From Escherichia phage vB_ESM-pEJ01, in sequence record OP114734.1: DNA of 64,000 nucleotides; one strand, written 5' to 3'. Positions within the stretch are counted from its first letter, which is position 1; the number at the start of each line of letters is the position of its first letter. The translations under genes and the position numbers were made by a program. The notes beneath the pieces were generated by a model. It ran no database searches, had not been told where the DNA came from, and worked only from the letters and a program-made list of their open reading frames with translations. Below are positions 49,121 through 62,557 of this stretch, one piece after another.

Positions 49121-49603
49121 TTTTGCTAAATCATTGCAATATTTTAGTGCCTTAGTTTGAAATTCTGAGCTGTTAAGTTCTTCATAACGGTCATAATCAC
49201 CGTTTAATGCTGCCTTTCTTGCTTCTTGCTCTATCTGCATGTCAGACATGATAATACAGCGATCCCGCGCTTTCATCTTCTCAAGTTGTATAGACTCTTC
49301 TTTCTGCTTGCGCAATTCTTCTTGACGCTTCTTTTCTTCTTGTGCTTTCTCTTCCCGCGCTTCTTTGATTGCCTCCTTGAACATCTGCGTTTGTGGTGCT
49401 AAACCAACTTTAACTCGATCTACGTCTCGACGTTCCATTTTAGAAATAAAGCATGATTCGATCTGATCATCACTTGCATATGCTGCTTTACATTCACGAA
49501 GCAAGAAAACCGGATCTGATTTAGCATTCATCATAGCTTCCATGTTGGCACAACCAGTAAGCATGAATGCAGCCGCAAGACCAATCAGTTTAATCATTTT
49601 CAT
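49118..49603 (-). CDS. putative lipoprotein
   Basis: N-terminal signal peptide with lipobox LTGC (MKMIKLIGLAAAFMLTGC); charged coiled-coil middle region. Confidence 0.6.
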   Translation of the reverse strand: MKMIKLIGLAAAFMLTGCANMEAMMNAKSDPVFLLRECKAAYASDDQIESCFISKMERRDVDRVKVGLAPQTQMFKEAIKEAREEKAQEEKKRQEELRKQKEESIQLEKMKARDRCIIMSDMQIEQEARKAALNGDYDRYEELNSSEFQTKALKYCNDLAK

Positions 49604-50424
49604 TTAGTCACCTCACCGAAAATTGTAAATTGTCTACGATTCTCATCGCCGAAAGATTCTACTACGTCGTTTACCTTGACGCAAGTCCCTCGCGGTAAAA
49701 TTACTTCACATTCGCAAGGGTTCCATGCAATTGACCCAACAACAAAACCTTTATGATCTTTTACGTCAATTACCCATGATACATTACAAGAATGTTGCAT
49801 CTTTCCGGTCATTGATTCATATCGATTCTCACAATAAAGGCTAGTGCTGTTTGATAGCCATCCTCCAAAGATGATCGGTGTCATGCTGGTAGATACAAAG
49901 TTTTTAAAGGTAAACTCCTTATCTTCAATGATACGCTCTATTGTCTGAATGTCAAGATGTTGACCTCGATAAAGAGTACCGTTTAACTTTTCGGTTTTAT
50001 CCATGACACAATCCATCAAATCAACAATCTCTGATATCTCATCGGTCATGTCTTCTTCCCCTAAGAGAGCACCATTTACCCATTCGTATTGTTCAGACAC
50101 ATAATCACAGATTGCATTATATTCTGCTGGGGTTATGTTGTTATGTTTGTAATGTTTGAATACATTATCTCCAAAGTCTTCGGAGTGTACTTCATACATC
50201 ACATTAATGATTTTCTTGACAAATCCATAATCTTGTGTCTCGCGCTCAAGGAAGCGGATAACCTTCACATAATCATCAAAGTTAATCTGATCGCTGATCA
50301 TCTCAGTGATCATGTAACCATTAATCCCCTCAATGTCATATGTTTCGATGTAATTATCCATACGTTCCATCATTGATTCGCGTGATTCTTCTGAAAGACG
50401 AAAATCCTGTAATTTCTTGAACAT
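49600..50424 (-). CDS. Alt-like ADP-ribosyltransferase paralog (short form)
   Basis: R-S-E triad: LYRGQ, FVSTS, CECEVILPRG; aligns with the C-terminal domain of the adjacent 683-aa Alt (YRG, KNYVSTS, IFGGW, ECEILLPRG). Confidence 0.7.
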   Translation of the reverse strand: MFKKLQDFRLSEESRESMMERMDNYIETYDIEGINGYMITEMISDQINFDDYVKVIRFLERETQDYGFVKKIINVMYEVHSEDFGDNVFKHYKHNNITPAEYNAICDYVSEQYEWVNGALLGEEDMTDEISEIVDLMDCVMDKTEKLNGTLYRGQHLDIQTIERIIEDKEFTFKNFVSTSMTPIIFGGWLSNSTSLYCENRYESMTGKMQHSCNVSWVIDVKDHKGFVVGSIAWNPCECEVILPRGTCVKVNDVVESFGDENRRQFTIFGEVTK

Positions 50425-50440
50425 TTTAAACCTCCCATAT

Positions 50441-50476
50441 AACAGAAAACGGGGCTAGTATAAAACTAGTCCCCGT
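50441..50476 (-). terminator. hairpin terminator after alt
   Basis: - strand hairpin ACGGGGACTAGT/ACTAGCCCCGT followed by UUUUCUGUU. Confidence 0.55.
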
Positions 50477-50485
50477 TTGAGTCAA
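50457..50485 (-). promoter_or_regulatory. putative promoter TTGACT-N17-TATACT overlapping the hairpin, upstream of the Alt-like gene
   Basis: same architecture as the PeSL-like units at 52-60 kb. Confidence 0.45.
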
Positions 50486-50502
50486 CCATTATTTCTTAAA
50501 AA

Positions 50503-52554
50503 TTACATTTTAAATTTATCTGGCATTGCGTCTACAGATACCAGATCAGCGATAAGCTGACGTAGAGTTGCCTTATCTGCTTTCTTACGTTCGGTTTTAG
50601 CTTCGCTAATGAAGCTGGAGAAAGACAGGTCAGAAGCAGGTTTAATAACACCTTCACGGATGAATGCATCACCGTCCGCGATCATCTCGCCAGATTCTTG
50701 TAATGCTGCCAGTTCATTTTTGTTCATAATATGTGCCTCAATGTAATAAGTTTCTTGTGAATCAGTCGATGCCGTGGCACTAGTTACCGTATCAAAGGAT
50801 AACACAACACCGCGAGGAAGTAAAATCTCGCATTCTTTGTAAGCAAATGCTTTGTTACCTACTGGCAATACAGGGATGTTTTCCGCGCCAGCAATGGAGA
50901 AAGCAACATTAGCGCCACCTTCACCGCGAGAGCCAGCCATAGAATCAACACCAGCAACGGCACTAGCCACGTTTGCATTCCAGCCGCCAAAAATGTTAGG
51001 TGCAAGGGAAGTGCTCACATAGTTTTTAAAGTAAAACGCTTTTTGCTTACGTGCAGTTTCCCACATTTGCGACCGGAAGTCCATACCACGATACAGAATA
51101 GTACCCGGATCAAGTTTAACGCCATAGTTGGAGAAGGCATTATCCAGTGCATCGCACATCTTGACCAATTCTTCTGGATCTGCGATGCCTTCAAACTCTT
51201 CCAGCTTACGGTCGGTTAGGAAGTTGTTCATATTGATGTATGCTGCATCGGCATATTCGCTCAACACAAAACCTTCCGCGCCTGGCAGATCAAGATCAAT
51301 ATCTGCCATCATTTCACCCATGTTGCTAGCAATTGCTTCAAACATACCGGACGCAACATTACGTAGGGCATCGGTTTTAATCTGGGTGATATGACTACGC
51401 AGCATTTCAGCTTTTACATCTGCTGGCATAGACTGGTCTACTCGATCCATTGCCAGGGCGGTGATCTTGTTTTCGAATACTTCCTCGCTCATGATTTCTT
51501 TTAAGCGTTTGACCGAGGCTGCGATAACTTCCGCAGACAACGGATCATATTGATCCTGAACTTTTACCAGTTCGCTTACTGCGTATTTTGCATCGGCTTC
51601 GCTTTCAAAAATAGTACGCATGAAACCATAGCGAGTGATAATATCACTTGTCCAGTCATTCAGAGAACGGGCGGTTGAACGTTCTAAGGCTTGACGGTCA
51701 ATCAGAGTATTAAACTGTTTCTTAGGTTCGGCTTCGGTGATATCTTCTTCCGGTTTAAGATTAATTTTTTCTGGATGATTCACATAGTCGCTGTTATAGG
51801 TCGCTTGAGTTTTCAGCATTTCTTCTTTAGTCAAACGAGATTTAGCCGCTACGCGTTGTTCCGCTTCCGCGTTTCGTTCTTCTTCTGACACAAGACTAGC
51901 CGCATACGCTTCATCTTTAGTCAGAGATTCACCGGTAGCCTTAGATACCCAGCGATCACCTAAATCACTTTCTACTTTAGTGAACAGGGAATCATCAAGT
52001 TTAATCCCTTTAATCTTATCAATCGCCATACCGCGACGCTTGACAACAACTAAAGCGATCTTTTTGCTGGTCATTACTTCCTGCTGGAATACTTCAAACT
52101 TCGGTGTACGACGCACCAAACGCTCTATAACGCGCTTAACCAGTTCGGTCTTACCTTTCATGCGGGATACGTTAAAACGGAACATAACAGCGTCTAATTG
52201 CGCTTTACGGGCTGTTTCCATAACCACATCAAAAGCACTTGCCATAACTGCAATCGGGTTATCACCTAGACCATTTTTAAGCTGTACAATACGACCGCTT
52301 TTGTTCATTTCGCACAGTACAACATGTGCGGTCTTGTCACCCATACGAATGATTTTAGGTGTTTTGTTGGTGAAGTTACAAAGACGGACAATCACATCTT
52401 TATCGCGTGTCTGTACTGCAAAAAGCTGTTTAGGATTCTGCTTAGGCTTTAAGCACTGTACCGGGGCAATACTACCAAAGTTTTCTTCCTCTTCCGTCAA
52501 CAGCCATTTCTCGAAAGATTCAATCATTAGATCGTCGATTTCTAAGTTAAACAT
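50503..52554 (-). CDS. alt: ADP-ribosyltransferase Alt
   Basis: 683 aa (T4 Alt 682 aa); C-terminal ART domain with ILYRG, YVSTS, ECEILLPRG; position between gene 54 and gene 30. Confidence 0.8.
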   Translation of the reverse strand: MFNLEIDDLMIESFEKWLLTEEEENFGSIAPVQCLKPKQNPKQLFAVQTRDKDVIVRLCNFTNKTPKIIRMGDKTAHVVLCEMNKSGRIVQLKNGLGDNPIAVMASAFDVVMETARKAQLDAVMFRFNVSRMKGKTELVKRVIERLVRRTPKFEVFQQEVMTSKKIALVVVKRRGMAIDKIKGIKLDDSLFTKVESDLGDRWVSKATGESLTKDEAYAASLVSEEERNAEAEQRVAAKSRLTKEEMLKTQATYNSDYVNHPEKINLKPEEDITEAEPKKQFNTLIDRQALERSTARSLNDWTSDIITRYGFMRTIFESEADAKYAVSELVKVQDQYDPLSAEVIAASVKRLKEIMSEEVFENKITALAMDRVDQSMPADVKAEMLRSHITQIKTDALRNVASGMFEAIASNMGEMMADIDLDLPGAEGFVLSEYADAAYINMNNFLTDRKLEEFEGIADPEELVKMCDALDNAFSNYGVKLDPGTILYRGMDFRSQMWETARKQKAFYFKNYVSTSLAPNIFGGWNANVASAVAGVDSMAGSRGEGGANVAFSIAGAENIPVLPVGNKAFAYKECEILLPRGVVLSFDTVTSATASTDSQETYYIEAHIMNKNELAALQESGEMIADGDAFIREGVIKPASDLSFSSFISEAKTERKKADKATLRQLIADLVSVDAMPDKFKM

Positions 52555-53427: not shown

Positions 53428-53760
53428 TTATAGTCTCCTGAATGGATCATCACGTAAATCAATATCTTTTAAGAACTCATCCCATGAATGGCGGATATTA
53501 TTCTTAATTCTCCAGATAAGCGAAGGGATTGAACGCTCTCCCATCTGGAAGTATGGATCATATGATCCGTATGCCCAATATGCTACTACAATTCCGCAAT
53601 CAGTGCAATAGTATTCTATCTCGCTTGCTGGCGACCAAAGTCCATCAATATGATCACGGATCTTGCTTTCAATGTTATGACTATGGCAATCAGGGCAACG
53701 GATGCAATGACCTTGTTTGTCATAATTTGACGTTAGCGAATACTTAAACAATCTCATCAT
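53428..53760 (-). CDS. Zn-ribbon protein (110 aa)
   Basis: CIRCPDC...H and CTDCG cysteine pairs; start overlaps upstream stop by 4 nt. Confidence 0.6.
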   Translation of the reverse strand: MMRLFKYSLTSNYDKQGHCIRCPDCHSHNIESKIRDHIDGLWSPASEIEYYCTDCGIVVAYWAYGSYDPYFQMGERSIPSLIWRIKNNIRHSWDEFLKDIDLRDDPFRRL

Positions 53761-54473
53761 AGATCCTTATTGGCTTCAAATACTGCCTTTGCGAATCCTC
53801 GCGGGGTAAGTGACCTGATAGTCTTTGTTCTGGTTCCTTTCCCGCCTAGCTTAGAATGCTGTTTACTGTACCCTTTATTAATCGGCAACGGTTTCTTTTC
53901 TGGCATTATAAAGCCTTGTCCGGTCCATAAGCAAGTCTTTTTCGGGTACATATCACGGGCGGCAATATACTCAGGAAACGTAGGATGTATATCATCTTCC
54001 GGCAAATAACCGCCATATTCCCACGGGTGGAACATGTAATCAGGCTTACGCCACATGCTAGAGATAACGCTTACAGGATTCTCTATCATGTAGGGAACTC
54101 CTAGCCATTCACCCAAATAAGCGGTTATTTTAGCTGCCCGTACATCATGAACTTGAATCAACGGTCCTTGTTCTAGTTTCTTTCGTTCAAAGTGCGCAGC
54201 GCCACTAACAGCTAAATTGGTGCACGGTGGGAATGCAAAGATAATATCCGGTTTCCCCCATTCAAGGTCCATTGCTCTTTCCAGCCAGTTCAAATCAATC
54301 CAGGTGTTTACATAGGTAATGTTTTGATGTTCAAATCGGGTATTATATTTTTTGTATGTACCGTGGTCGCCATCGTCAGCATTAAAGCAGATCACCTTAT
54401 GACCTGCTTTAGCCCATTCTAACCCCATTATCCCCGATCCGTCAAAGTTGCAGAATATTAATTTTTGTTTCAC
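53757..54473 (-). CDS. compact DNA C5-cytosine methyltransferase-like protein (no large target-recognition domain)
   Basis: motif I FCNFDGSGIMG, motif IV FAFPPCTNLAVSGA (Pro-Cys), motif VI MIENPVS, motif IX-like IRSLTPRGFAKA in canonical order; GTG start overlapping upstream TGA. Confidence 0.65.
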   Translation of the reverse strand: MKQKLIFCNFDGSGIMGLEWAKAGHKVICFNADDGDHGTYKKYNTRFEHQNITYVNTWIDLNWLERAMDLEWGKPDIIFAFPPCTNLAVSGAAHFERKKLEQGPLIQVHDVRAAKITAYLGEWLGVPYMIENPVSVISSMWRKPDYMFHPWEYGGYLPEDDIHPTFPEYIAARDMYPKKTCLWTGQGFIMPEKKPLPINKGYSKQHSKLGGKGTRTKTIRSLTPRGFAKAVFEANKDL

Positions 54474-54721: not shown

Positions 54722-54761
54722 TGTTTGATTCTCCTAAGTGGTATCTCGTCTTGATGGTTGT

Positions 54762-54790
54762 ATTGTAGGGGAGTTATCCTCCCCTGTCAA
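54762..54790 (-). promoter_or_regulatory. PeSL-like early promoter unit 2 (TTGACA-N17-TACAAT)
   Basis: palindromic spacer GGGGAGGATAACTCCCC. Confidence 0.6.
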
Positions 54791-54804
54791 CACTTTTTAT
54801 AAAA

Positions 54805-54972
54805 TTATTTGTTAATTTCTGGTGCGTTGCTAGGATAGTAACCTTCTTTAACTCCGAGATATTTCGCAACCATCCCTACAATCTTCTGTGCTACTACAAT
54901 GTCAAATTTCAGATAATCTTCGCCGTGGGTTTCAATGATATATGCTTCACATGCTGCTTTAGTCTCGAACAT
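54805..54972 (-). CDS. small protein (55 aa), paralog of 58083-58250
   Basis: manually found ORF MFETKAACEAYIIETHGEDYLKFDIVVAQKIVGMVAKYLGVKEGYYPSNAPEINK; RBS GGAGAA. Confidence 0.55.
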   Translation of the reverse strand: MFETKAACEAYIIETHGEDYLKFDIVVAQKIVGMVAKYLGVKEGYYPSNAPEINK

Positions 54973-55005
54973 TTTGATTCTCCTATTTCGTTTCGTTATG
55001 TGTGT

Positions 55006-55034
55006 ATTATAGGGGATCTCCAGATCCCCGTCAA
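55006..55034 (-). promoter_or_regulatory. PeSL-like early promoter unit 3 (TTGACG-N17-TATAAT)
   Basis: palindromic spacer GGGGATCTGGAGATCCC with two GATC. Confidence 0.6.
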
Positions 55035-55048
55035 CAACTTTTTTAAAA

Positions 55049-55330
55049 TTATTCGTGATTAGTTTCGATGTTGTGCATTTTGCACCAGTTCAGCCAATCA
55101 CCCAGATCCTGATAGTTAATGCTTTTATCTGCTGCCATCGTTTTTGTCTTGATACCCATATGTGCGTTATGAGTAAGCATTTTTACAGTGAACTCAATTT
55201 TATCACCTTTAGCTTTAACATCAACCAGTTTGGTCCACTGGCTACCAGCGCCGCGAATGTTCATACCAACGATGTTTCCGATGTATGCTTCTTTGTTTTT
55301 CAGGATTTCGGTTGCTTTGATGAATTTCAT
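55049..55330 (-). CDS. hypothetical protein (93 aa)
   Basis: ATG with RBS GGAGAA downstream of PeSL unit 4. Confidence 0.55.
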   Translation of the reverse strand: MKFIKATEILKNKEAYIGNIVGMNIRGAGSQWTKLVDVKAKGDKIEFTVKMLTHNAHMGIKTKTMAADKSINYQDLGDWLNWCKMHNIETNHE

Positions 55331-55363
55331 TTTTGATTCTCCAGTTCGTTTCGGTATGTGTGT

Positions 55364-55392
55364 ATTATGCTATGTTCTTACTTTGGTGTCAA
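55364..55392 (-). promoter_or_regulatory. PeSL-like early promoter unit 4 (TTGACA-N17-CATAAT)
   Basis: no spacer palindrome. Confidence 0.5.
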
Positions 55393-55400
55393 CAACTTTT

Positions 55401-55670
55401 TTAGATATTTTCAGAAATAAATTTTAAAACTTGACGTAAATGTTTCTCATCTTTGATAGTCGCCGGAAGTTCTTCTTTTACTTCCTGTGCAAGATAGATA
55501 TTTCCGTTCCAAGTGAAAGATCCGTCTTCGTTTACGCGATAGCTGAACATCCACTCGCAATCATTTTCGATTTCATATACACACAGAAGGGTGTAATCGT
55601 TAAAGCTATTGATTTCAAGGTCGAAGCCGTGACGTTTTGCAAAGTTGGTAGTGGTTTTAGTCAGCGCCAT
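55401..55670 (-). CDS. hypothetical protein (89 aa)
   Basis: ATG with RBS GGAGAA downstream of PeSL unit 5. Confidence 0.55.
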   Translation of the reverse strand: MALTKTTTNFAKRHGFDLEINSFNDYTLLCVYEIENDCEWMFSYRVNEDGSFTWNGNIYLAQEVKEELPATIKDEKHLRQVLKFISENI

Positions 55671-55710
55671 TGTTTGATTCTCCTAAGTGGTATCTCGTTT
55701 CGATGGGTGT

Positions 55711-55739
55711 ATTATGCTATAGGCGTGATCTGGTGTCAA
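55711..55739 (-). promoter_or_regulatory. PeSL-like early promoter unit 5 (TTGACA-N17-CATAAT)
   Basis: leader nearly identical to unit 6. Confidence 0.5.
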
Positions 55740-55763
55740 CAACTTTTTTAAAATTTTATGCAA

Positions 55764-55788
55764 TAAAAAGCCGACACTAAGGTCGGCT
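55764..55788 (-). terminator. intrinsic terminator after family member A
   Basis: perfect 7-bp stem AGCCGAC/GTCGGCT, U-run on - strand. Confidence 0.65.
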
Positions 55789-55795
55789 AATAAAA

Positions 55796-56104
55796 TCATT
55801 TAGACAAATAATCATTCAGTGCAATCCGGTCGGCATGTTCCGGCGTTACGTCAATCGCAATCAGTTTAACGCGTGCTTTCTTGCGACCTGGGTTTTCTCG
55901 TAACCAGTGCTCATGACCGTGAACATTTTTATACTGCGATGCTTCTTCGAAGGTACGGATCGGACCTGGGTAATCAGCGTAAAGGATCTCTAGGTCATCG
56001 GTGATGTAAAAATATACGTTGTAATTGCTGTTCTCTAGTTTAAGCAGAGACATTCGGAACATTGGGAGATTTTCGCGGGTAAATTCAAAGATATTATCTT
56101 TCAT
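55796..56104 (-). CDS. H-x-H-W family small protein A (102 aa)
   Basis: start moved to ATG at 56104 (RBS GAGGA); C-terminal HGHEHWLRENPGRKKARVKLIAIDVTPEHADRI. Confidence 0.55.
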   Translation of the reverse strand: MKDNIFEFTRENLPMFRMSLLKLENSNYNVYFYITDDLEILYADYPGPIRTFEEASQYKNVHGHEHWLRENPGRKKARVKLIAIDVTPEHADRIALNDYLSK

Positions 56105-56130
56105 AGTATTATCCTCAATAGTTGGATGAA

Positions 56131-56150
56131 ACGGGGGCTTAACGCCCCGT
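56131..56150 (-). other. hairpin of the GGGGC-TTAAC-GCCCC family
   Basis: same stem-loop as at 52601-52620 and, in the gene-sense orientation, 20002-20018. Confidence 0.4.
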
Positions 56151-56153
56151 ATA

Positions 56154-56441
56154 TTAAAACAGCCCTTCCTGTACACCGTAGTAGAGTTCATCGCTGATAA
56201 TTTCATTAATGCGACGGTGTGCATATTCCTGATTTGCGAAGTTGTCAGCAAGTTCTACTTTAGTTTCGCCGTCATGAGTCCATTTAGTGATAACTTTACC
56301 ATCTGCAAATTTGAAGTTGAACTCTTTAGCTACCGCATCGCGTACCAGACGTGCAAACTTGTTGTTGCGGATTGCATTGTCGGTTTCGTGTGCAGCGTGA
56401 GCGAATTTGTTAACTTTCAGAGTGATAGTAATGTATGCCAT
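56154..56441 (-). CDS. hypothetical protein (95 aa), paralog of 59727-60038
   Basis: RLVRDAVAKEFNFK versus REVRKALAKEFNTK in 59727-60038; RBS GGAGAA. Confidence 0.55.
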   Translation of the reverse strand: MAYITITLKVNKFAHAAHETDNAIRNNKFARLVRDAVAKEFNFKFADGKVITKWTHDGETKVELADNFANQEYAHRRINEIISDELYYGVQEGLF

Positions 56442-56487
56442 AATTTGATTCTCCTAGTTAGAAAGTGTATCTCGTTTCGATGGGTGT

Positions 56488-56516
56488 ATTATGCTATACA
56501 CCCGATCTTATGTCAA
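56488..56516 (-). promoter_or_regulatory. PeSL-like early promoter unit 6 (TTGACA-N17-CATAAT)
   Basis: leader nearly identical to unit 5. Confidence 0.5.
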
Positions 56517-56522
56517 CACTTT

Positions 56523-56801
56523 TTATAAAATAATTTTTTGATATTTTTCTATGATGTTCGTGTAAGTCACATCAACCGCTATCACCGTTGCTTCGAATCC
56601 ACCGTTTAGCCAATGGCTATGGTCATGATCGTGAAAGAAACCAAGACCAGTACGAAGACCTTCTTTATATTCGGCGCGTACATTTAGATCATCATCGATA
56701 AACAGATAAAACCATGAATTTTTACTAGGATTGATGATACAACCTTTCAGATTAGGGAGAATATCACGACTAAGAATAAACTTATCACCTACTTTGAACA
56801 T
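56523..56801 (-). CDS. H-x-H-W family small protein B (92 aa)
   Basis: start moved to ATG at 56801 (RBS GAGGAA); C-terminal HDHDHSHWLNGGFEATVIAVDV. Confidence 0.55.
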   Translation of the reverse strand: MFKVGDKFILSRDILPNLKGCIINPSKNSWFYLFIDDDLNVRAEYKEGLRTGLGFFHDHDHSHWLNGGFEATVIAVDVTYTNIIEKYQKIIL

Positions 56802-56815
56802 AATATTTTCCTCAC

Positions 56816-57124
56816 TTATAAAGTTTGACCGTTGTTTTTCGCGTAATGCTGAATGCGTGCTTGATCTGCTTCCGCTGGTGATAGATTCCATGCAACCACT
56901 ACAACTTCTGACGCATCGTCATCCGTTTCTGATACCCAATGATTGTGATTCATACAGTTATTTGCTATCGAGTGAGCAAATGATTTCATCACTGGAGACG
57001 TATAATCATAGTAACGGATTTTCAGATTTTCATCAACATACAAGTAGATCGTATAAGGTTTATATTCAGTAACCAGTAACAGACAGTTACGCAATTCTGG
57101 GAAAATCTTTTTAGTTAATTTCAT
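56816..57124 (-). CDS. H-x-H-W family small protein C (102 aa)
   Basis: start moved to ATG at 57124 (RBS GAGGA); C-terminal HNHWVSETDDDASEVVVVAWNLSPAEADQ. Confidence 0.55.
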   Translation of the reverse strand: MKLTKKIFPELRNCLLLVTEYKPYTIYLYVDENLKIRYYDYTSPVMKSFAHSIANNCMNHNHWVSETDDDASEVVVVAWNLSPAEADQARIQHYAKNNGQTL

Positions 57125-57125
57125 T

Positions 57126-57344
57126 TTATAATCCTCGGTCTCGGCTATAGTACACGGTACGCCATACAATTTCATGTTTCGTGTCGCTCCAGCACACGAT
57201 CTCATTTACTCTTAAATCTTTGTTATCAACAAAAGATGAACATTGTGACGCTTCTTTCATCATTTTATCTGCTGTTTTCTCATCAAATACAGCACAGATT
57301 TCTTTATACACTCGATAATCTTTGAATTGACTCTGAATACCCAT
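57126..57344 (-). CDS. hypothetical protein (72 aa), tandem paralog of 57304-57561
   Basis: SQFKDYRVYKEI...KMMKEASQC versus SKFKEYKAYQQI...KMMEDASKC. Confidence 0.5.
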   Translation of the reverse strand: MGIQSQFKDYRVYKEICAVFDEKTADKMMKEASQCSSFVDNKDLRVNEIVCWSDTKHEIVWRTVYYSRDRGL

Positions 57345-57561
57345 AATTAACACCATTCCAACCAATTGTTTTTGAGAAAACGTCTATCCACTGTTGAGTG
57401 TAGCATGTTTCTTTCCATGATACAATACGAGTGGAATAATGGTTTTTGTTTCCAGAAAAGGACGGGCATTTTGATGCATCTTCCATCATCTTTTCGGCGA
57501 ACTCTGGTGCGTATACTCGCAGGATCTGTTGATATGCTTTGTATTCTTTAAATTTGCTCAT
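57304..57561 (-). CDS. hypothetical protein (about 85 aa), tandem paralog of 57126-57344
   Basis: overlaps the downstream paralog by about 40 nt; start ambiguous (57561 or 57567). Confidence 0.5.
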   Translation of the reverse strand: MSKFKEYKAYQQILRVYAPEFAEKMMEDASKCPSFSGNKNHYSTRIVSWKETCYTQQWIDVFSKTIGWNGVNYGYSESIQRLSSV

Positions 57562-57826
57562 AATCATTCACTACCTTATCAGCTTCTTTTGTTGTTTTTA
57601 CATCAACTGCGATAACTCGTAAAGGTTCGTCATGGTTCCACCAGTGGTCATGAATATCAGCTTGTGATTTATCACCAAAGGAATCACGAATATCATTTTT
57701 ACATTTATAGCTAATGTGACCTTCATAGTCAACATAAAGGTAATTATCGAAAATCGGCGTTTTTAAGATCATACCGAAAAATCTTTCTTTGTGTGTCTTA
57801 TCCAGCGTTACAGTAATTCGCATCAT
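57548..57826 (-). CDS. H-x-H-W family small protein D (92 aa)
   Basis: RBS AAGAGGAA; C-terminal IHDHWWNHDEPLRVIAVDVKTTKEADKV. Confidence 0.55.
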   Translation of the reverse strand: MMRITVTLDKTHKERFFGMILKTPIFDNYLYVDYEGHISYKCKNDIRDSFGDKSQADIHDHWWNHDEPLRVIAVDVKTTKEADKVVNDYEQI

Positions 57827-57838
57827 AATATATTCCTC

Positions 57839-58018
57839 TTAGAAAGGGATGGTCATTTCTTGAGCTTGTACATTCTCGTTAGGATTAAACTTCATCCAAC
57901 CGATATTGTCTACCAGCATATGTACATTTTTATCATATCCTACGTGAGTAGTCAACACTAAATGTGCTTTACCTTCAACGATGATTTCCATGTACTTCTG
58001 AACTTCGATAGCTTTCAT
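57839..58018 (-). CDS. hypothetical small protein (59 aa)
   Basis: manually found ORF MKAIEVQKYMEII...; RBS GGAGAA downstream of PeSL unit 7. Confidence 0.45.
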   Translation of the reverse strand: MKAIEVQKYMEIIVEGKAHLVLTTHVGYDKNVHMLVDNIGWMKFNPNENVQAQEMTIPF

Positions 58019-58050
58019 TTTGATTCTCCGTTTGTTGTCTTGATGGGAGT

Positions 58051-58079
58051 ATCTTACTACTCCCTTTAATCATTGTCAA
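58051..58079 (-). promoter_or_regulatory. PeSL-like early promoter unit 7 (TTGACA-N17-TAAGAT)
   Basis: palindrome GGGAGTA...TACTCCC overlaps the -10. Confidence 0.5.
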
Positions 58080-58082
58080 CTA

Positions 58083-58250
58083 TTATTTGTTAATTTCCGG
58101 TGCGTTGCTCGGATAGTAACCTTCTTTAACACCTAGATATTTTGCAACCATTCCGGTGATCTTCTGTGCTACTACGATATCGAATTTCAGGTAGTCTTCA
58201 CCGTGGTTTGCTACAATGTATGCTTCGCATTCTGCTTTAGTCTGGAACAT
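58083..58250 (-). CDS. small protein (55 aa), paralog of 54805-54972
   Basis: start moved to ATG at 58250; MFQTKAECEAYIVANHGEDYLKFDIVVAQKITGMVAKYLGVKEGYYPSNAPEINK. Confidence 0.55.
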   Translation of the reverse strand: MFQTKAECEAYIVANHGEDYLKFDIVVAQKITGMVAKYLGVKEGYYPSNAPEINK

Positions 58251-58284
58251 TTTTGATTCTCCTATATCTCGTTGGTATGTGTGC

Positions 58285-58313
58285 ATTATAGGGGATCGGT
58301 GATCCCCTGTCAA
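58285..58313 (-). promoter_or_regulatory. PeSL-like early promoter unit 8 (TTGACA-N17-TATAAT)
   Basis: spacer GGGGATCACCGATCCCC on the - strand, same palindrome arms as unit 1 with inverted centre. Confidence 0.6.
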
Positions 58314-58320
58314 CAACTTT

Positions 58321-58623
58321 TTATTCTTCATCTTTATCTTGATATGCGTACTTCATAAATTTGTCTGCTACTTTGTCCGCGTTTTCAGGTTCTACGTCTG
58401 ACGCTAGGACAACAGCTAGTTCGGTTTTGTCGTTTCCATCATACCAATGATTATGAGTGTCGTTTTCTTCGATATAAAACGAATCGTTTGGAGTTGTGCG
58501 ACAATATACGTCTAAATTCCCATCGATATAAAAGATCCAATCCGAATACAAAATGATTGTTTTAGCAAGATTTTTATTGTCTCTTACAAAAGGTTCCGCG
58601 ACAAATAGCTTAGTTTGTTCCAT
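58321..58623 (-). CDS. H-x-H-W family small protein E (100 aa)
   Basis: start moved to ATG at 58623 (RBS GAGGAA); C-terminal HNHWYDGNDKTELAVVLASDVEPENADKV. Confidence 0.55.
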   Translation of the reverse strand: MEQTKLFVAEPFVRDNKNLAKTIILYSDWIFYIDGNLDVYCRTTPNDSFYIEENDTHNHWYDGNDKTELAVVLASDVEPENADKVADKFMKYAYQDKDEE

Positions 58624-58639
58624 AATATTTTCCTCAAAA

Positions 58640-58828
58640 TTATACAGCTTCGTAAACTTCCCAATGTTCAGCACCAACACGCTTAACGAAAAGGTTTTCT
58701 TTGATGTTATTCATAAACGTCTGGATGGATTTAATGCGGTTGGAAGGTTTCCAGTCTTCGTTGGCATTGCGGTGATACATAATATTACCAGTTCGCTTAT
58801 ATTCAGCAACCATTTTAAGACCACACAT
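58640..58828 (-). CDS. hypothetical protein (62 aa)
   Basis: ATG with RBS GAGGA; preceded by hairpin 58848-58866. Confidence 0.5.
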   Translation of the reverse strand: MCGLKMVAEYKRTGNIMYHRNANEDWKPSNRIKSIQTFMNNIKENLFVKRVGAEHWEVYEAV

Positions 58829-58847
58829 AATATTATCCTCAATTTGT

Positions 58848-58866
58848 GGGAGAGTATTACCCTCCC
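58848..58866 (-). other. hairpin GGGAGAGTATTACCCTCCC (degenerate PeSL-like element)
   Basis: palindrome containing a TAATAC -10-like hexamer; no clear -35. Confidence 0.35.
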
Positions 58867-58884
58867 GATTATTGTTATACTACA

Positions 58885-59187
58885 TTACGCAAAATGGCGT
58901 GTCAATGCTTCTTTTGCTGTTCCGCTAAGATTCTCGATCTCTCCTGGCATAACATCAACCGCCAGAACTTCTACAACATCCTCTGATCCTAACCAGTGAG
59001 TATGACCTTTGTAGAACTTGATATCCCATTTATCGCTATCGCTAGCCCACCACACATCACCGTCTATAAAGTTGATGTAAAGCACACTACGACACATTGA
59101 ATTAGTTACTTTCAATACTGCGCCTTTCATCTCTTCCACGGTATGGTCTTCCATTTTGAAGACCTCGCCTACCTTAACTTTTGCCAT
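58885..59187 (-). CDS. H-x-H-W family small protein F (100 aa)
   Basis: start moved to ATG at 59187 (RBS GGAG); C-terminal GHTHWLGSEDVVEVLAVDVMPGEIEN. Confidence 0.55.
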   Translation of the reverse strand: MAKVKVGEVFKMEDHTVEEMKGAVLKVTNSMCRSVLYINFIDGDVWWASDSDKWDIKFYKGHTHWLGSEDVVEVLAVDVMPGEIENLSGTAKEALTRHFA

Positions 59188-59188
59188 G

Positions 59189-59455
59189 TTACATGCTCCG
59201 AATATGTTTAGATGCATCTTCCAGTTCGTCGATAGTGACACTGTGAGCCAGTAAGTGTACTGGTTGTGGTTCTTCACCTTCCATAGTATTGATCAGATGA
59301 CCGTTTCCTGGGTGGAATGTATCGTTGCCGTTCCAAATAGCATACACATCATCTTCTGTTACGTAGATAATAAGTCCAATCGGTGATTCTGGTAATTGAA
59401 AAATTTTACCCACTGCATCTTTGCGATTGTTTACGATATCTTTTACTGTCTTCAT
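59189..59455 (-). CDS. hypothetical protein G (88 aa), possibly a divergent family member
   Basis: RBS GAGAGG; YVTEDDVYAIW...H.....LLAHSV..DELEDA loosely resembles the family layout. Confidence 0.5.
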   Translation of the reverse strand: MKTVKDIVNNRKDAVGKIFQLPESPIGLIIYVTEDDVYAIWNGNDTFHPGNGHLINTMEGEEPQPVHLLAHSVTIDELEDASKHIRSM

Positions 59456-59654: not shown

Positions 59655-59688
59655 AATTGATTCTCCTAGTTCTTTTCGGTATGTGTGT

Positions 59689-59718
59689 AGTATAGGGGAG
59701 TTTAACCTCCCCTGTCAA
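59689..59718 (-). promoter_or_regulatory. PeSL-like early promoter unit 10 (TTGACA-N18-TATACT)
   Basis: palindromic spacer GGGGAGGTTAAACTCCCC. Confidence 0.55.
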
Positions 59719-59726
59719 CAACTTTT

Positions 59727-60038
59727 TTAAAGTTTTTCCATGATAACGGTCATAATTACATCTTCTGCGCGAGCGGTCAGATTATCGGCGTCAGCATGTG
59801 GGCGGTTGGTTGTTACAGAGATAACACCGTTGCGCACTGGTTTAATATTGATATCAAGATGGTCCGCGAAACGTTCGCCAGTTACAGAATGAATTTTGGT
59901 GTTAAATTCTTTTGCCAGTGCCTTGCGAACTTCACGAATCAGGGTAGCGTTTTTCAGTTGGTTCTCCGCGCTCATGGTCTTCTGGGTGTTCATGGTTCCG
60001 TCGAAGTCAATCATTGGCAGCGTTACGATGTATTTCAT
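59727..60038 (-). CDS. hypothetical protein (103 aa), paralog of 56154-56441
   Basis: RBS GGAGAA downstream of PeSL unit 11; shared REVRKALAKEFNTK region. Confidence 0.55.
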   Translation of the reverse strand: MKYIVTLPMIDFDGTMNTQKTMSAENQLKNATLIREVRKALAKEFNTKIHSVTGERFADHLDINIKPVRNGVISVTTNRPHADADNLTARAEDVIMTVIMEKL

Positions 60039-60083
60039 TTTTGATTCTCCGTTTAAGAAAGTATGTTTCGTTTTGATGTGTGT

Positions 60084-60112
60084 AGTATAGGGGATATGTG
60101 ATCCCCTGTCAA
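60084..60112 (-). promoter_or_regulatory. PeSL-like early promoter unit 11 (TTGACA-N17-TATACT)
   Basis: palindromic spacer GGGGATCACATATCCCC. Confidence 0.55.
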
Positions 60113-60125
60113 CAACTTTTTTGAA

Positions 60126-60602
60126 TTATTTTTCTTGATGCTCGCGCTCGTACTTTTCGAAATAAAATTCTACTGGCTGGTCATGAATTGACAGCAAGCC
60201 AAAGCGTTTAGCCGCTCGCAATCCCATATTGCGCTGAATGTACTTCTGGAAGTTCTCGCGTATACACTTACGCCAGTATTCTAAGCCCATACAGCTTTTA
60301 TAAAGATTGCATTGCACACACGCCGGATTCATGTTATCAAGTATATCATGTTCCGGTTTATGCATTCCTACAACCTTATACTTCCACGATCCATCATCAT
60401 TACGGGCAATTCGTCCATTTTCATCATAGACTACCTTTGAGCGTCGCAATACTGGTTTGATGTGGTCTGCGTGCCAGCGATCCCCTAGTTCCTCGCCACA
60501 ATAGGCACAACGTCCACCGTATTTCATTTTCAGGATCTGGCGTTGCTCTTTCTTTGACAATTTTTTAGGTTTAGGGGCTTTCGCCCCTTCATTATCACAC
60601 AT
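60126..60602 (-). CDS. HNH endonuclease-family protein
   Basis: C-x2-C...H-A-D-H...C-x2-C (CAYCGEE, WHADHIKP, CVQCN); ATG overlaps the ligase stop by 8 nt. Confidence 0.7.
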   Translation of the reverse strand: MCDNEGAKAPKPKKLSKKEQRQILKMKYGGRCAYCGEELGDRWHADHIKPVLRRSKVVYDENGRIARNDDGSWKYKVVGMHKPEHDILDNMNPACVQCNLYKSCMGLEYWRKCIRENFQKYIQRNMGLRAAKRFGLLSIHDQPVEFYFEKYEREHQEK

Positions 60603-62091
60603 CGAATACCTCTTTTACTGTATTTGCAGTGGTCTTGTCGTAGCGAATACGTTTGATGATTGGGAGAAATAAAGAGAACTCCGGTTCATCTTCTTTACGT
60701 GATTTGCTGCGGATATACCCGTTGCATGTCATCTCAATGACTTTTCCGATCAGGTTATGCCGATCAGCCCATAACATTTCTCGGTCAAGTTCATTTCGAC
60801 GATCGAACGGAATTACACGTTCAATACCATCATCACATTTTTCGGTTGTAGTGTCGGTTAATCCCGATCCGGTGTTAGTCATCATTCGTCCGCACGCACT
60901 ACGGACAGTAAAACCGCCTACCTTATTAGGATCTTTACTATGCGGATATACATCAACAATTTCAGCGTCGAAGTCAATCACTTCTTTAAATTTAACCTGG
61001 TCTTTACTACGGCGATCTTCAAATACACCATGTAAATTTTTAAGGATAATACCTTCTAAGCCCATGTTTACATAGCGATGATATACTTCGCGAGCTTCAT
61101 CGATATTGTTAACTACAGTGTTTTCGATTATCTGAACACGAGGATCGTTAAGTTCTTCAACAATCTGTTTTAGTTCTTCGAATCGATCTTTATATTGCTT
61201 AGTTGCTTTCTCGTTTCCGTAATACACATCACGGTCGATAACATCCCAGACAGTATAAACAATACATTGGGCTTCTTCTTTTGGAATAGTTCCTTTAAGT
61301 GATTTGTTGAGGATACCATTTCCGGTCTGACGATCTGCAACAACGGATTCTTTCACTGCTTCCGCTACTGGCGTTAATGGCATTTCCTCTTCTTCAAATA
61401 TCCATGACAGAGTACCATCATAAACGCTTTCAACGAAGTTCTGCGCTGGTGTTTGCGAAAGGGTAGGCATATATACCAATTCGCCATCTAGAACAATTCC
61501 ACGGCCTCGTAGACGCTCTAAAACCGCAAACAAATCATCAAGTCCCTGATAGGTATTACCTGAACGGGTATAGATTGCTAATGTTTCCCCGTCAATATCA
61601 GCCATACCACGAGCGCCATCGCTTTTAAGTTGTGCATACGCCGGATACTTGATATTAGCAATAGTCTTATCAGAACATGACGATGCAAGGTGGCACGGCT
61701 GCTGGGGGATCAGTTTCTTCCATACCTTGTTTGCAGTGGTAGCGGAACAACCGCATTCCAGATCACGATTCAGGACCATCATTGCAACTTTAGCATCATC
61801 TTCTGACAAGCAAGTCAGAGTATCGGTAACTAGCTGTAATGCTGCGTTACCAGTTACTTGACGCGTGGCAAGTTTATTTTTAAAGACCTGTAATGCACCG
61901 GATAAAGACAATACAGACGAATAACGCGATGGTTTATCGTATTTCTTTACGCCAAACGTAACCTGTTTGCAATATGCCAGATAAAAGCATTCTTTCAGAG
62001 TTTCATTGCTTGCGGATTCTTTCAGGATCTTTTCTTTCAGCGATGTTTTGTCGGTCGCTGCAAGCTGGTTAATGATATTAAGAATTGACAT
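60595..62091 (-). CDS. 30: ATP-dependent DNA ligase gp30
   Basis: start moved to ATG at 62091 (RBS GAGGTG; track used GTG); adenylation motif KSDGAR, RDLECG and LASS motifs match T4 DNA ligase. Confidence 0.9.
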   Translation of the reverse strand: MSILNIINQLAATDKTSLKEKILKESASNETLKECFYLAYCKQVTFGVKKYDKPSRYSSVLSLSGALQVFKNKLATRQVTGNAALQLVTDTLTCLSEDDAKVAMMVLNRDLECGCSATTANKVWKKLIPQQPCHLASSCSDKTIANIKYPAYAQLKSDGARGMADIDGETLAIYTRSGNTYQGLDDLFAVLERLRGRGIVLDGELVYMPTLSQTPAQNFVESVYDGTLSWIFEEEEMPLTPVAEAVKESVVADRQTGNGILNKSLKGTIPKEEAQCIVYTVWDVIDRDVYYGNEKATKQYKDRFEELKQIVEELNDPRVQIIENTVVNNIDEAREVYHRYVNMGLEGIILKNLHGVFEDRRSKDQVKFKEVIDFDAEIVDVYPHSKDPNKVGGFTVRSACGRMMTNTGSGLTDTTTEKCDDGIERVIPFDRRNELDREMLWADRHNLIGKVIEMTCNGYIRSKSRKEDEPEFSLFLPIIKRIRYDKTTANTVKEVFDV

Positions 62092-62557
62092 TTTCACCTC
62101 GTTTTGTTAAACGTTCACGAATATCATTGAGGATACTACAAAATTCCGATTCAGTCAATATAGTCTTTAACGGATCAGTTCCACCTATGCTATGACGTAA
62201 TTTCTTATTTCCGGTAGCGAGTAATGCTTTACAAAATTCTGGGTTATTCCGTGCCATCGTAACAAATGCCAGATGTACCAGTCTGTAATAATGCTCACTC
62301 ATTCGATGAATCTGGCGACCCTGAAAATATAACAGGTGATTCTCAATCTTTTCAGTTCTTCCGGTTCTTTTTGCTTTGCCACCGTGCATCAAAAAGATTT
62401 CTCTTTGTCTCTGGGGGTTCTTAAATCTTAGCCCCTGTAAAAATCCTTCTGTGCTGTTAATATCGCAACCAAATAAACGGAATGGTCTTTTATTGAAATT
62501 ACTCAATTCACCCGATGGATAAGGTCCACCCGCATAGATATCAATTTCAGAAGTCAT
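62078..62557 (-). CDS. NADAR (YbiA-like, DUF1768) domain protein
   Basis: IYAGGPYPSGELSNF, STEGFLQGLRF and ALLATG parallel the E. coli YbiA motifs (FSNF, TSEHYFQAQKF, ALLLAT); stop overlaps the ligase start. Confidence 0.75.
   Translation of the reverse strand: MTSEIDIYAGGPYPSGELSNFNKRPFRLFGCDINSTEGFLQGLRFKNPQRQREIFLMHGGKAKRTGRTEKIENHLLYFQGRQIHRMSEHYYRLVHLAFVTMARNNPEFCKALLATGNKKLRHSIGGTDPLKTILTESEFCSILNDIRERLTKRGENVNS

Follow-up and report, generated by a model that had tools for sequence, protein, structure and literature searches.

The closest described counterparts of the locus analyzed here are the PeSL-ORFan cassettes of T4-type phages (Arbiol et al. 2010, PMC2839356; Comeau et al. 2014, PMC4122927). 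PeSL cassettes, which consist of TTGACA, a GGGGATC..GATCCCC hairpin within a 17-nt spacer and TATAAT, are known from RB49 and phi1 (PMC2839356, PMC4122927), and the RB49-type hyperplastic region is a site of ORFan shuffling (PMC2839356). We analyzed a window of 64,000 nt (the whole stretch of DNA considered here) from Escherichia phage vB_ESM-pEJ01 (record OP114734.1) and focused on a cluster of small open reading frames (ORFs), A to G, at positions 55796-59455, which encode what we call the HxHW family. The window belongs to Krischvirus, the RB49-like T4-type phages, and this region is 92-97% identical in DNA to ~58 sequenced Krischvirus genomes, with RB49, phi1, JSE and G37-3 among the close matches. 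The cluster belongs to the same phage group as the PeSL-ORFan cassettes, lies in the same region downstream of gene 30 and has the same regulatory element (TTGACA-N17-TATAAT with a GGGG..CCCC hairpin), and its genes are likewise small database orphans. Unlike those cassettes, however, A to F have no individual PeSL flanks, and their presence in the genus is near-core instead of variable. The setting, early PeSL-associated ORFans of the RB49-type hyperplastic region, is already described. What is new is that five PHROGs families and G form one superfamily with an invariant motif, a stable six-subtype architecture and natural domain fusions, and that the HxHW domain has no characterized sequence or fold relative. 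A term search of the two papers found no mention of paralogs, duplications or gene families, and the ORF numbers of A to G are absent from them; searches of the literature by RB49 locus tag and ORF number, and on Krischvirus anti-defense genes, likewise turned up nothing on the family.

The members are:

55796-56104, minus strand: paralog A, 102 aa, phrog_9345, motif HGHEHW; last gene of the operon from the PeSL at 56467-56531
56523-56801, minus strand: paralog B, 92 aa, phrog_17255, motif HDHDHSHW
56816-57124, minus strand: paralog C, 102 aa, phrog_9345, motif NHNHW; nearest to A
57548-57826, minus strand: paralog D, 92 aa, phrog_15972, motif IHDHWW
58321-58623, minus strand: paralog E, 100 aa, phrog_15965, motif THNHWY; acidic, net charge -12
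58885-59187, minus strand: paralog F, 100 aa, phrog_16486, motif GHTHW
59189-59455, minus strand: G, 88 aa, divergent accessory seventh member, in which GNGHL replaces HxHW

An earlier note, made from the sequence alone, had described these ORFs as a tandem family of six to seven paralogs; all seven exist at the positions it gave, on the minus strand, and the C-terminal motif strings it quoted are correct. In related phages they are annotated as coding sequences, which every record labels hypothetical proteins. The products of A to F and of the accessory G are single-domain, soluble and mildly acidic (~10-12 kDa, pI 4.4-6.1), and E is among the most diverse subtypes of the retrieved set.

A to F are confirmed as true homologues and form one paralog family. 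Pairwise phmmer comparisons connect all six, each matches one PHROG of unknown function (9345, 17255, 15972, 15965 or 16486, E 1e-46 to 1e-64), and cross-matches to phrog_9345 unite the five PHROGs, a resource in which the same proteins stand as five unrelated-looking families with G unassigned. We also left out each subtype as a whole in turn, trained a hidden Markov model (HMM) on the remaining subtypes with their orthologues, and ran it against the full set of 577 ORFs in the window. It recovered every paralog with E 5e-10 to 6e-17, against E >= 0.019 for the best unrelated ORF. The three approaches agree on a genuine tandem family, and the profile comparison on which the earlier note had made its proposal depend finds highly significant homology for A to F. 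No further copies were found elsewhere in the window or in the remainder of the complete G37-3 genome.

The family motif is H-[TNDES]-H-W-[LYVW]. Of 109 non-redundant family sequences, 106 have the histidine at -2, and no full-length member departs from H-W. The aromatic Y-x-Y-(V/I)-D core that the earlier note had proposed holds for its tyrosine, which is nearly invariant, but not for its aspartate, which is Thr throughout the A subtype and Asn in F-type proteins. In some subtypes Asn or Gly likewise takes the place of the Asp after strand 5 of the predicted fold (see below). The N-termini of A to F are dissimilar, as had been noted. Positions that are constant within a subtype and different between subtypes lie in the N-terminal third, near the motif and in the C-terminal helix.

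Membership of G, left open by the earlier note, does not follow from the sequence HMM (E 0.3-0.4, not significant). Nevertheless, the small family of G aligns to the A-F profile in hhalign with a probability of 94.5% (E 7.5e-8, 69 columns), and Foldseek pairs the AlphaFold2 (AF2) model of A with the BFVD model of C4MZ33, an 88-aa JSE protein that we infer from its length and accession order to be the G orthologue (probability 1.0, TM 0.55/0.62). On these two matches we regard G as a divergent seventh member, which keeps the second His only and lacks the first His and the Trp.

The HxHW family is confined to Krischvirus and close uncultured relatives. An exhaustive HMMER profile scan of 1.8e9 representatives returned 22 matches, all of the ~100-aa family type except one protein (P0097, discussed below); searches of 5.8e9 clustered proteins returned only ~100-aa proteins of the family, and tblastn against 50,697 phage genomes matched Krischvirus only. 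The family thus had no homologues outside its phage group in the database searches and qualifies as ORFan; neither the profile scan nor tblastn found a T4 or other characterized relative, which bears out the statement of the earlier note that it could be assigned to no known T4 protein. A related-locus scan with P0093 as query found no relatives. Across the ~58 Krischvirus genomes, tblastn recovered D and A/C in 56 records each, the E type and F in 55 each, B in 53 and G in 8, and in each of ten related Krischvirus loci an HMM scan detected six copies, no more and no fewer, in one constant order. The copy-number comparison that the earlier note had suggested therefore gives a fixed set of six with G as an accessory gene. 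Of insertion, deletion or replacement polymorphism, G shows presence or absence and A, D and E show allele replacement; A to F, however, occur in nearly all genomes, with the A gene carrying a frameshift in JSE and a truncation in kvi. A deletion in an IMG/VR Krischvirus genome (L022, 11774-12119) takes out n95, A, n89, n93, one n55 copy and the 3' end of B, and fuses the 5' two-thirds of B to n83.

More distant loci retain parts of the set. The metagenomic contig L003 carries, in order, n59a', F', n59b', a fused B'-E' gene, D' and C'; the B'-E' fusion (203 aa; L003 823-1434, P0086; also P0108) occurs in two distinct metagenomic contigs. In a MAFFT alignment of this two-domain protein, single-domain homologues are split across both halves, which is misleading for modelling. 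L017, a T4-like relative (72% identity in the ligase), has the same alt-to-gene-30 region but only two copies, both of E type. G has a homologue, P0105 (63-65% identical), in Salmonella enterica prophage-like elements (L014-L016, 8001-8294), where it is the last gene at the element edge beside truncated chromosomal genes, a typical accessory ('moron') position.

All genes of the cluster region lie on the minus strand. It is flanked on one side by alt-like ADP-ribosyltransferase genes (49600-52554) and a DNA methyltransferase gene (53757-54473), and on the other by an HNH endonuclease gene (60126-60602) and the gene 30 DNA ligase (60595-62097). It thus lies between core genes, as expected of the hyperplastic region, with the same layout in L007 and L017. 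On the minus strand, the stretch from 54.7 to 60.1 kb holds nine PeSL copies, whose promoters agree with the sigma-70 consensus at 10-12 of 12 positions. The regulatory features are:

59657-59736, minus strand: PeSL with TTGACA, GGGG..CCCC hairpin and TATACT; promoter at 59718; heads n59a-G-F-n62-E
58253-58332, minus strand: PeSL; promoter at 58313; heads n55
58030-58094, minus strand: PeSL-like promoter cassette; promoter at 58079; heads n59b-D-K1-K2-C-B
56467-56531, minus strand: PeSL with TTGACA N17 CATAAT; promoter at 56516; heads n95-A
55769-55788, minus strand: intrinsic-terminator-like hairpin with T-run, immediately after A
54730-54809, 54974-55053, 55332-55411, 55690-55754 and 60052-60131, minus strand: further PeSL cassettes

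Within three short operons, the family genes occupy internal or distal positions, and genes overlap or abut in D-K1-K2-C-B and in G-F, which suggests translational coupling. This operon layout behind PeSL sigma-70 promoters makes early expression of the family by host RNA polymerase a strong inference, so that the early expression assumed in the earlier note is plausible from sequence.

The dN/dS ratios (nonsynonymous over synonymous substitution rates), computed over 11 genomes, are 0.36 for A, 0.07 for B, 0.14 for C, 0.23 for D, 0.19 for E and 0.15 for F, and these values identify A to F as real genes under purifying selection. Alleles of A, D, E and the neighboring gene K2 fall to 56-65% identity at lowest where flanking genes are >=95% identical, and their synonymous divergence (pS) is 0.2-0.45 vs 0.05-0.11 in the flanking genes, that is 2-9x the flank. 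Such high pS points to old divergent alleles swapped in by recombination rather than to rapid local evolution, and among the six subtypes this deep allelic divergence is limited to A, D and E. Since each domain of L003 can be assigned to a subtype of the window, the subtypes are ancient, and on the sequence comparison the six are older than the split from the uncultured relatives. The earlier description of a multi-copy, fast-diverging family is misleading, given the fixed set of six, the purifying selection and the distant orthologues, although A, D and E do have deeply divergent alleles.

We then turn to the predicted structure. The confident AF2 models of A (pLDDT 84.7, pTM 0.79) and D (pLDDT 89.9, pTM 0.83) run through strand 1, a short helix and a three-strand meander, in which YxYID forms strand 3 and its turn. 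Then come a loop, a short helix with H-x-H-W, strand 5 (V-x-A-x-D-V) and finally the C-terminal helix, whose start is marked by a P-E-E-A-D block. The predicted fold combines this helix with a compact sheet of beta-meander or small-barrel-like form, and in these models the turn or short helix bearing H-x-H-W between strands 4 and 5 (pLDDT ~93 in the D model) would be its only invariant polar feature. The structural similarity search that the earlier note had proposed gave the Tis1 immunity protein (Tis1-like antitoxin domain, PDB 6OX6 chain B) as the best-ranked structural neighbor of both models, with a superposition of uncertain significance. Tis1 is similar in size and is likewise a stand-alone small inhibitor domain. 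SH3-like small beta-barrels (FeoA, the DtxR C-terminal domain, eL14/KOW, Tudor/Spindlin and Kid) are also among the closest known systems, and a structure search of BFVD matched Krischvirus family members only.

Sequence-profile searches of Pfam, NCBIfam, PADLOC and the PDB gave noise only. Single members produced noise-level matches to PROCT (E 0.0035), Imm19 (0.048), T4_Y03C (0.1) and Cupin_2 (0.18), and the family profile against all PDB sequences matched a single, unrelated salivary protein (E 0.57). P0097 (1034 aa) matched the family profile at E 6e-7 over six stretches in the exhaustive scan, but was rejected as a homologue. Its repeats contain FYMDRKGCLRLTY...GHSHTW within a presumed beta-sandwich domain and the score is inflated by repetition, so we judged the match convergent and P0097 likely a spurious MAM-like, eukaryote-like repeat protein. 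Weak matches to Cif, deubiquitinases and C39 peptidases raised a papain-like reading, which was discarded since the family has no conserved Cys (A has none at all).

What could such a family do? We tentatively favor, while granting that it may well be wrong, that A to F are ancient binding modules for early host takeover or counter-defense, with six long-established specificities. In this scheme, unmodified host RNA polymerase would make the HxHW proteins within the first minutes of infection, and each paralog would act as a non-enzymatic module that docks stoichiometrically onto a macromolecule of the host or of a competing element. The H-x-H-W patch could serve as a shared contact hot-spot on a common feature of the targets, and the subtype-specific surfaces of the N-terminus and C-terminal helix would set target specificity, so that the family would amount to an early host-takeover or counter-defense inhibitor set with six old specificities. 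A non-enzymatic binder is the most economical reading of a selected set of genes behind early-type promoters that shows no detectable enzyme or metal-family signature. The host-takeover or anti-defense role suggested in the earlier note is a reasonable conjecture.

Alternatively, the H-x-H-W loop may be the binding site of a metal ion or small (phospho)nucleotide, which the proteins would sequester as a sponge or modify as a small hydrolase; this is possible but doubtful. It echoes the proposal of the earlier note that clustered histidines suggest metal binding, and a dimer interface could bring four His together. Families with HxH metal sites include cupins, metallo-beta-lactamases (HxHxDH), LAS/M23 peptidases (HxxxD+HxH) and HIT proteins. 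Three conserved ligands in the spacing of any of these were not found in the HxHW family: only the two candidate ligands of H-x-H are conserved, Thr or Asn replaces the YxYID Asp and Asn or Gly the Asp after strand 5 in whole subtypes (these are more simply read as turn or helix-cap residues), and G is without the first His and the Trp. Moreover, no cupin, metallo-beta-lactamase, HIT or other Pfam or PDB match emerged, Cupin_2 (E 0.18) being the sole Pfam hit to such families. A helical stretch offers poor geometry for i/i+2 metal chelation, and the motif is partly helical in the D model. With H-x-H-W alone invariant, a classical metal site is not supported. The histidine argument thus turned out weak, and we rejected a metal site as the primary explanation because the conserved ligands are too few.

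Whether the subtypes instead assemble into a hetero-oligomer, one early phage machine rather than independent effectors, is a question raised by the constancy of the set: the same order of six in 10/10 genomes, each subtype in 53-56 of the ~58 Krischvirus records, the F, B, E, D and C subtypes kept in the distant contig L003, the B'-E' fusion protein in two contigs, and the overlapping or abutting D-K1-K2-C-B and G-F genes. We nevertheless find it unlikely. The sister phage L017 manages with two E-type copies only, the metagenome-assembled L022 lacks A and an intact B, A is broken in JSE and kvi, and alleles of A, D and E have been exchanged singly, the others not being co-replaced.

A more specific version of the favored binder reading would be that the HxHW domain is a new phage early inhibitor module, fold kin of Tis1-type immunity proteins, whose six paralogs would act against different host toxins or defense effectors with HxHW entering nucleotide-binding sites. 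We consider this improbable as a whole. The narrower sub-case, in which Tis1-like antitoxin or immunity domains would plug the active site of toxSAS/RSH or similar nucleotide-modifying toxins, appears very unlikely. No sequence or profile similarity to Tis1 was found (the PDB profile search gave only the salivary protein), and the neighbors tested for toxSAS/RSH toxin linkage had no Pfam or NCBIfam match, none being RSH-like. Finally, that A to F are functionless ORFan passengers hitch-hiking on PeSL-mediated recombination is barely credible, for although they sit in a hyperplastic site of ORFan shuffling (PMC2839356), G comes and goes between genomes and A suffers natural deletions and frameshifts, all six have dN/dS of 0.07-0.36 with many synonymous changes, the motif is invariant over deep divergence, and the subtypes are kept in distant relatives.

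The T-even internal proteins (IPI/II/III and variants) are a further comparison, being also multi-variant small accessory proteins of T4-type phages near promoter/stem-loop elements. They have been discussed as countering host defenses (PMC2839356). The HxHW family differs from them in its locus, in its stable copy number and in having no shared N-terminal capsid-targeting sequence. Internal proteins of T4-type phages carry a conserved N-terminal capsid-targeting sequence that ends in a prohead-protease site. A capsid-targeted reading was rejected, as the N-termini of A to F are dissimilar and supply the first strand of the predicted fold.

RB49-like phages have been isolated widely and serve as therapeutic candidates, and accessory ORFan families of this kind are common in large phages. 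The ~7 kb between alt and gene 30, otherwise annotated as all hypothetical, can now be seen as a block with one motif and one cluster to target. If the HxHW proteins are inhibitors, their six fixed specificities would point to six host functions that need early neutralization; if they bind a common ligand, they would represent a new small ligand-binding fold.

Several neighboring genes are also paralogous. Three further pairs lie in the region: phrog_8471 (57304-57567 and 57126-57344), phrog_7474 (56154-56441 and 59727-60038) and phrog_8009 (54805-54972 and 58083-58250). The phrog_8009 pair shares 172 nt at 85% identity, PeSL included, which suggests a recent cassette duplication. The phrog_8471 pair is:

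57126-57567, minus strand: K1 and K2, co-transcribed, between D and C

In L004 (95-649) a phrog_8471-type (K) gene lies directly upstream of an A/C-type member, and in an uncultured relative (L005, 318-1100) one continuous frame joins two phrog_8471-type domains to an HxHW domain of C type (260 aa, a single contig). These arrangements hint at a functional link between the K and HxHW families. A fixed two-gene module, made of a small upstream ORF and an HxHW gene, was considered and rejected, since the pairings are not kept in L003 and L017.

Directly upstream of A, n95 (56154-56441) matches the Pfam ADP-ribosyltransferase family Tox-ART-HYD1 at E 0.062 (14 bits vs a cutoff of 25), which is probably noise, and n89 (55401-55670) has a weak match to the Pfam MAM domain (E 0.023). 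At the other end of the region, the HNH endonuclease gene (60126-60602) shares 8 nt with the 3' end of the gene for DNA ligase; the endonuclease is >=98% identical across Krischvirus and is found in the more distant L017 too.

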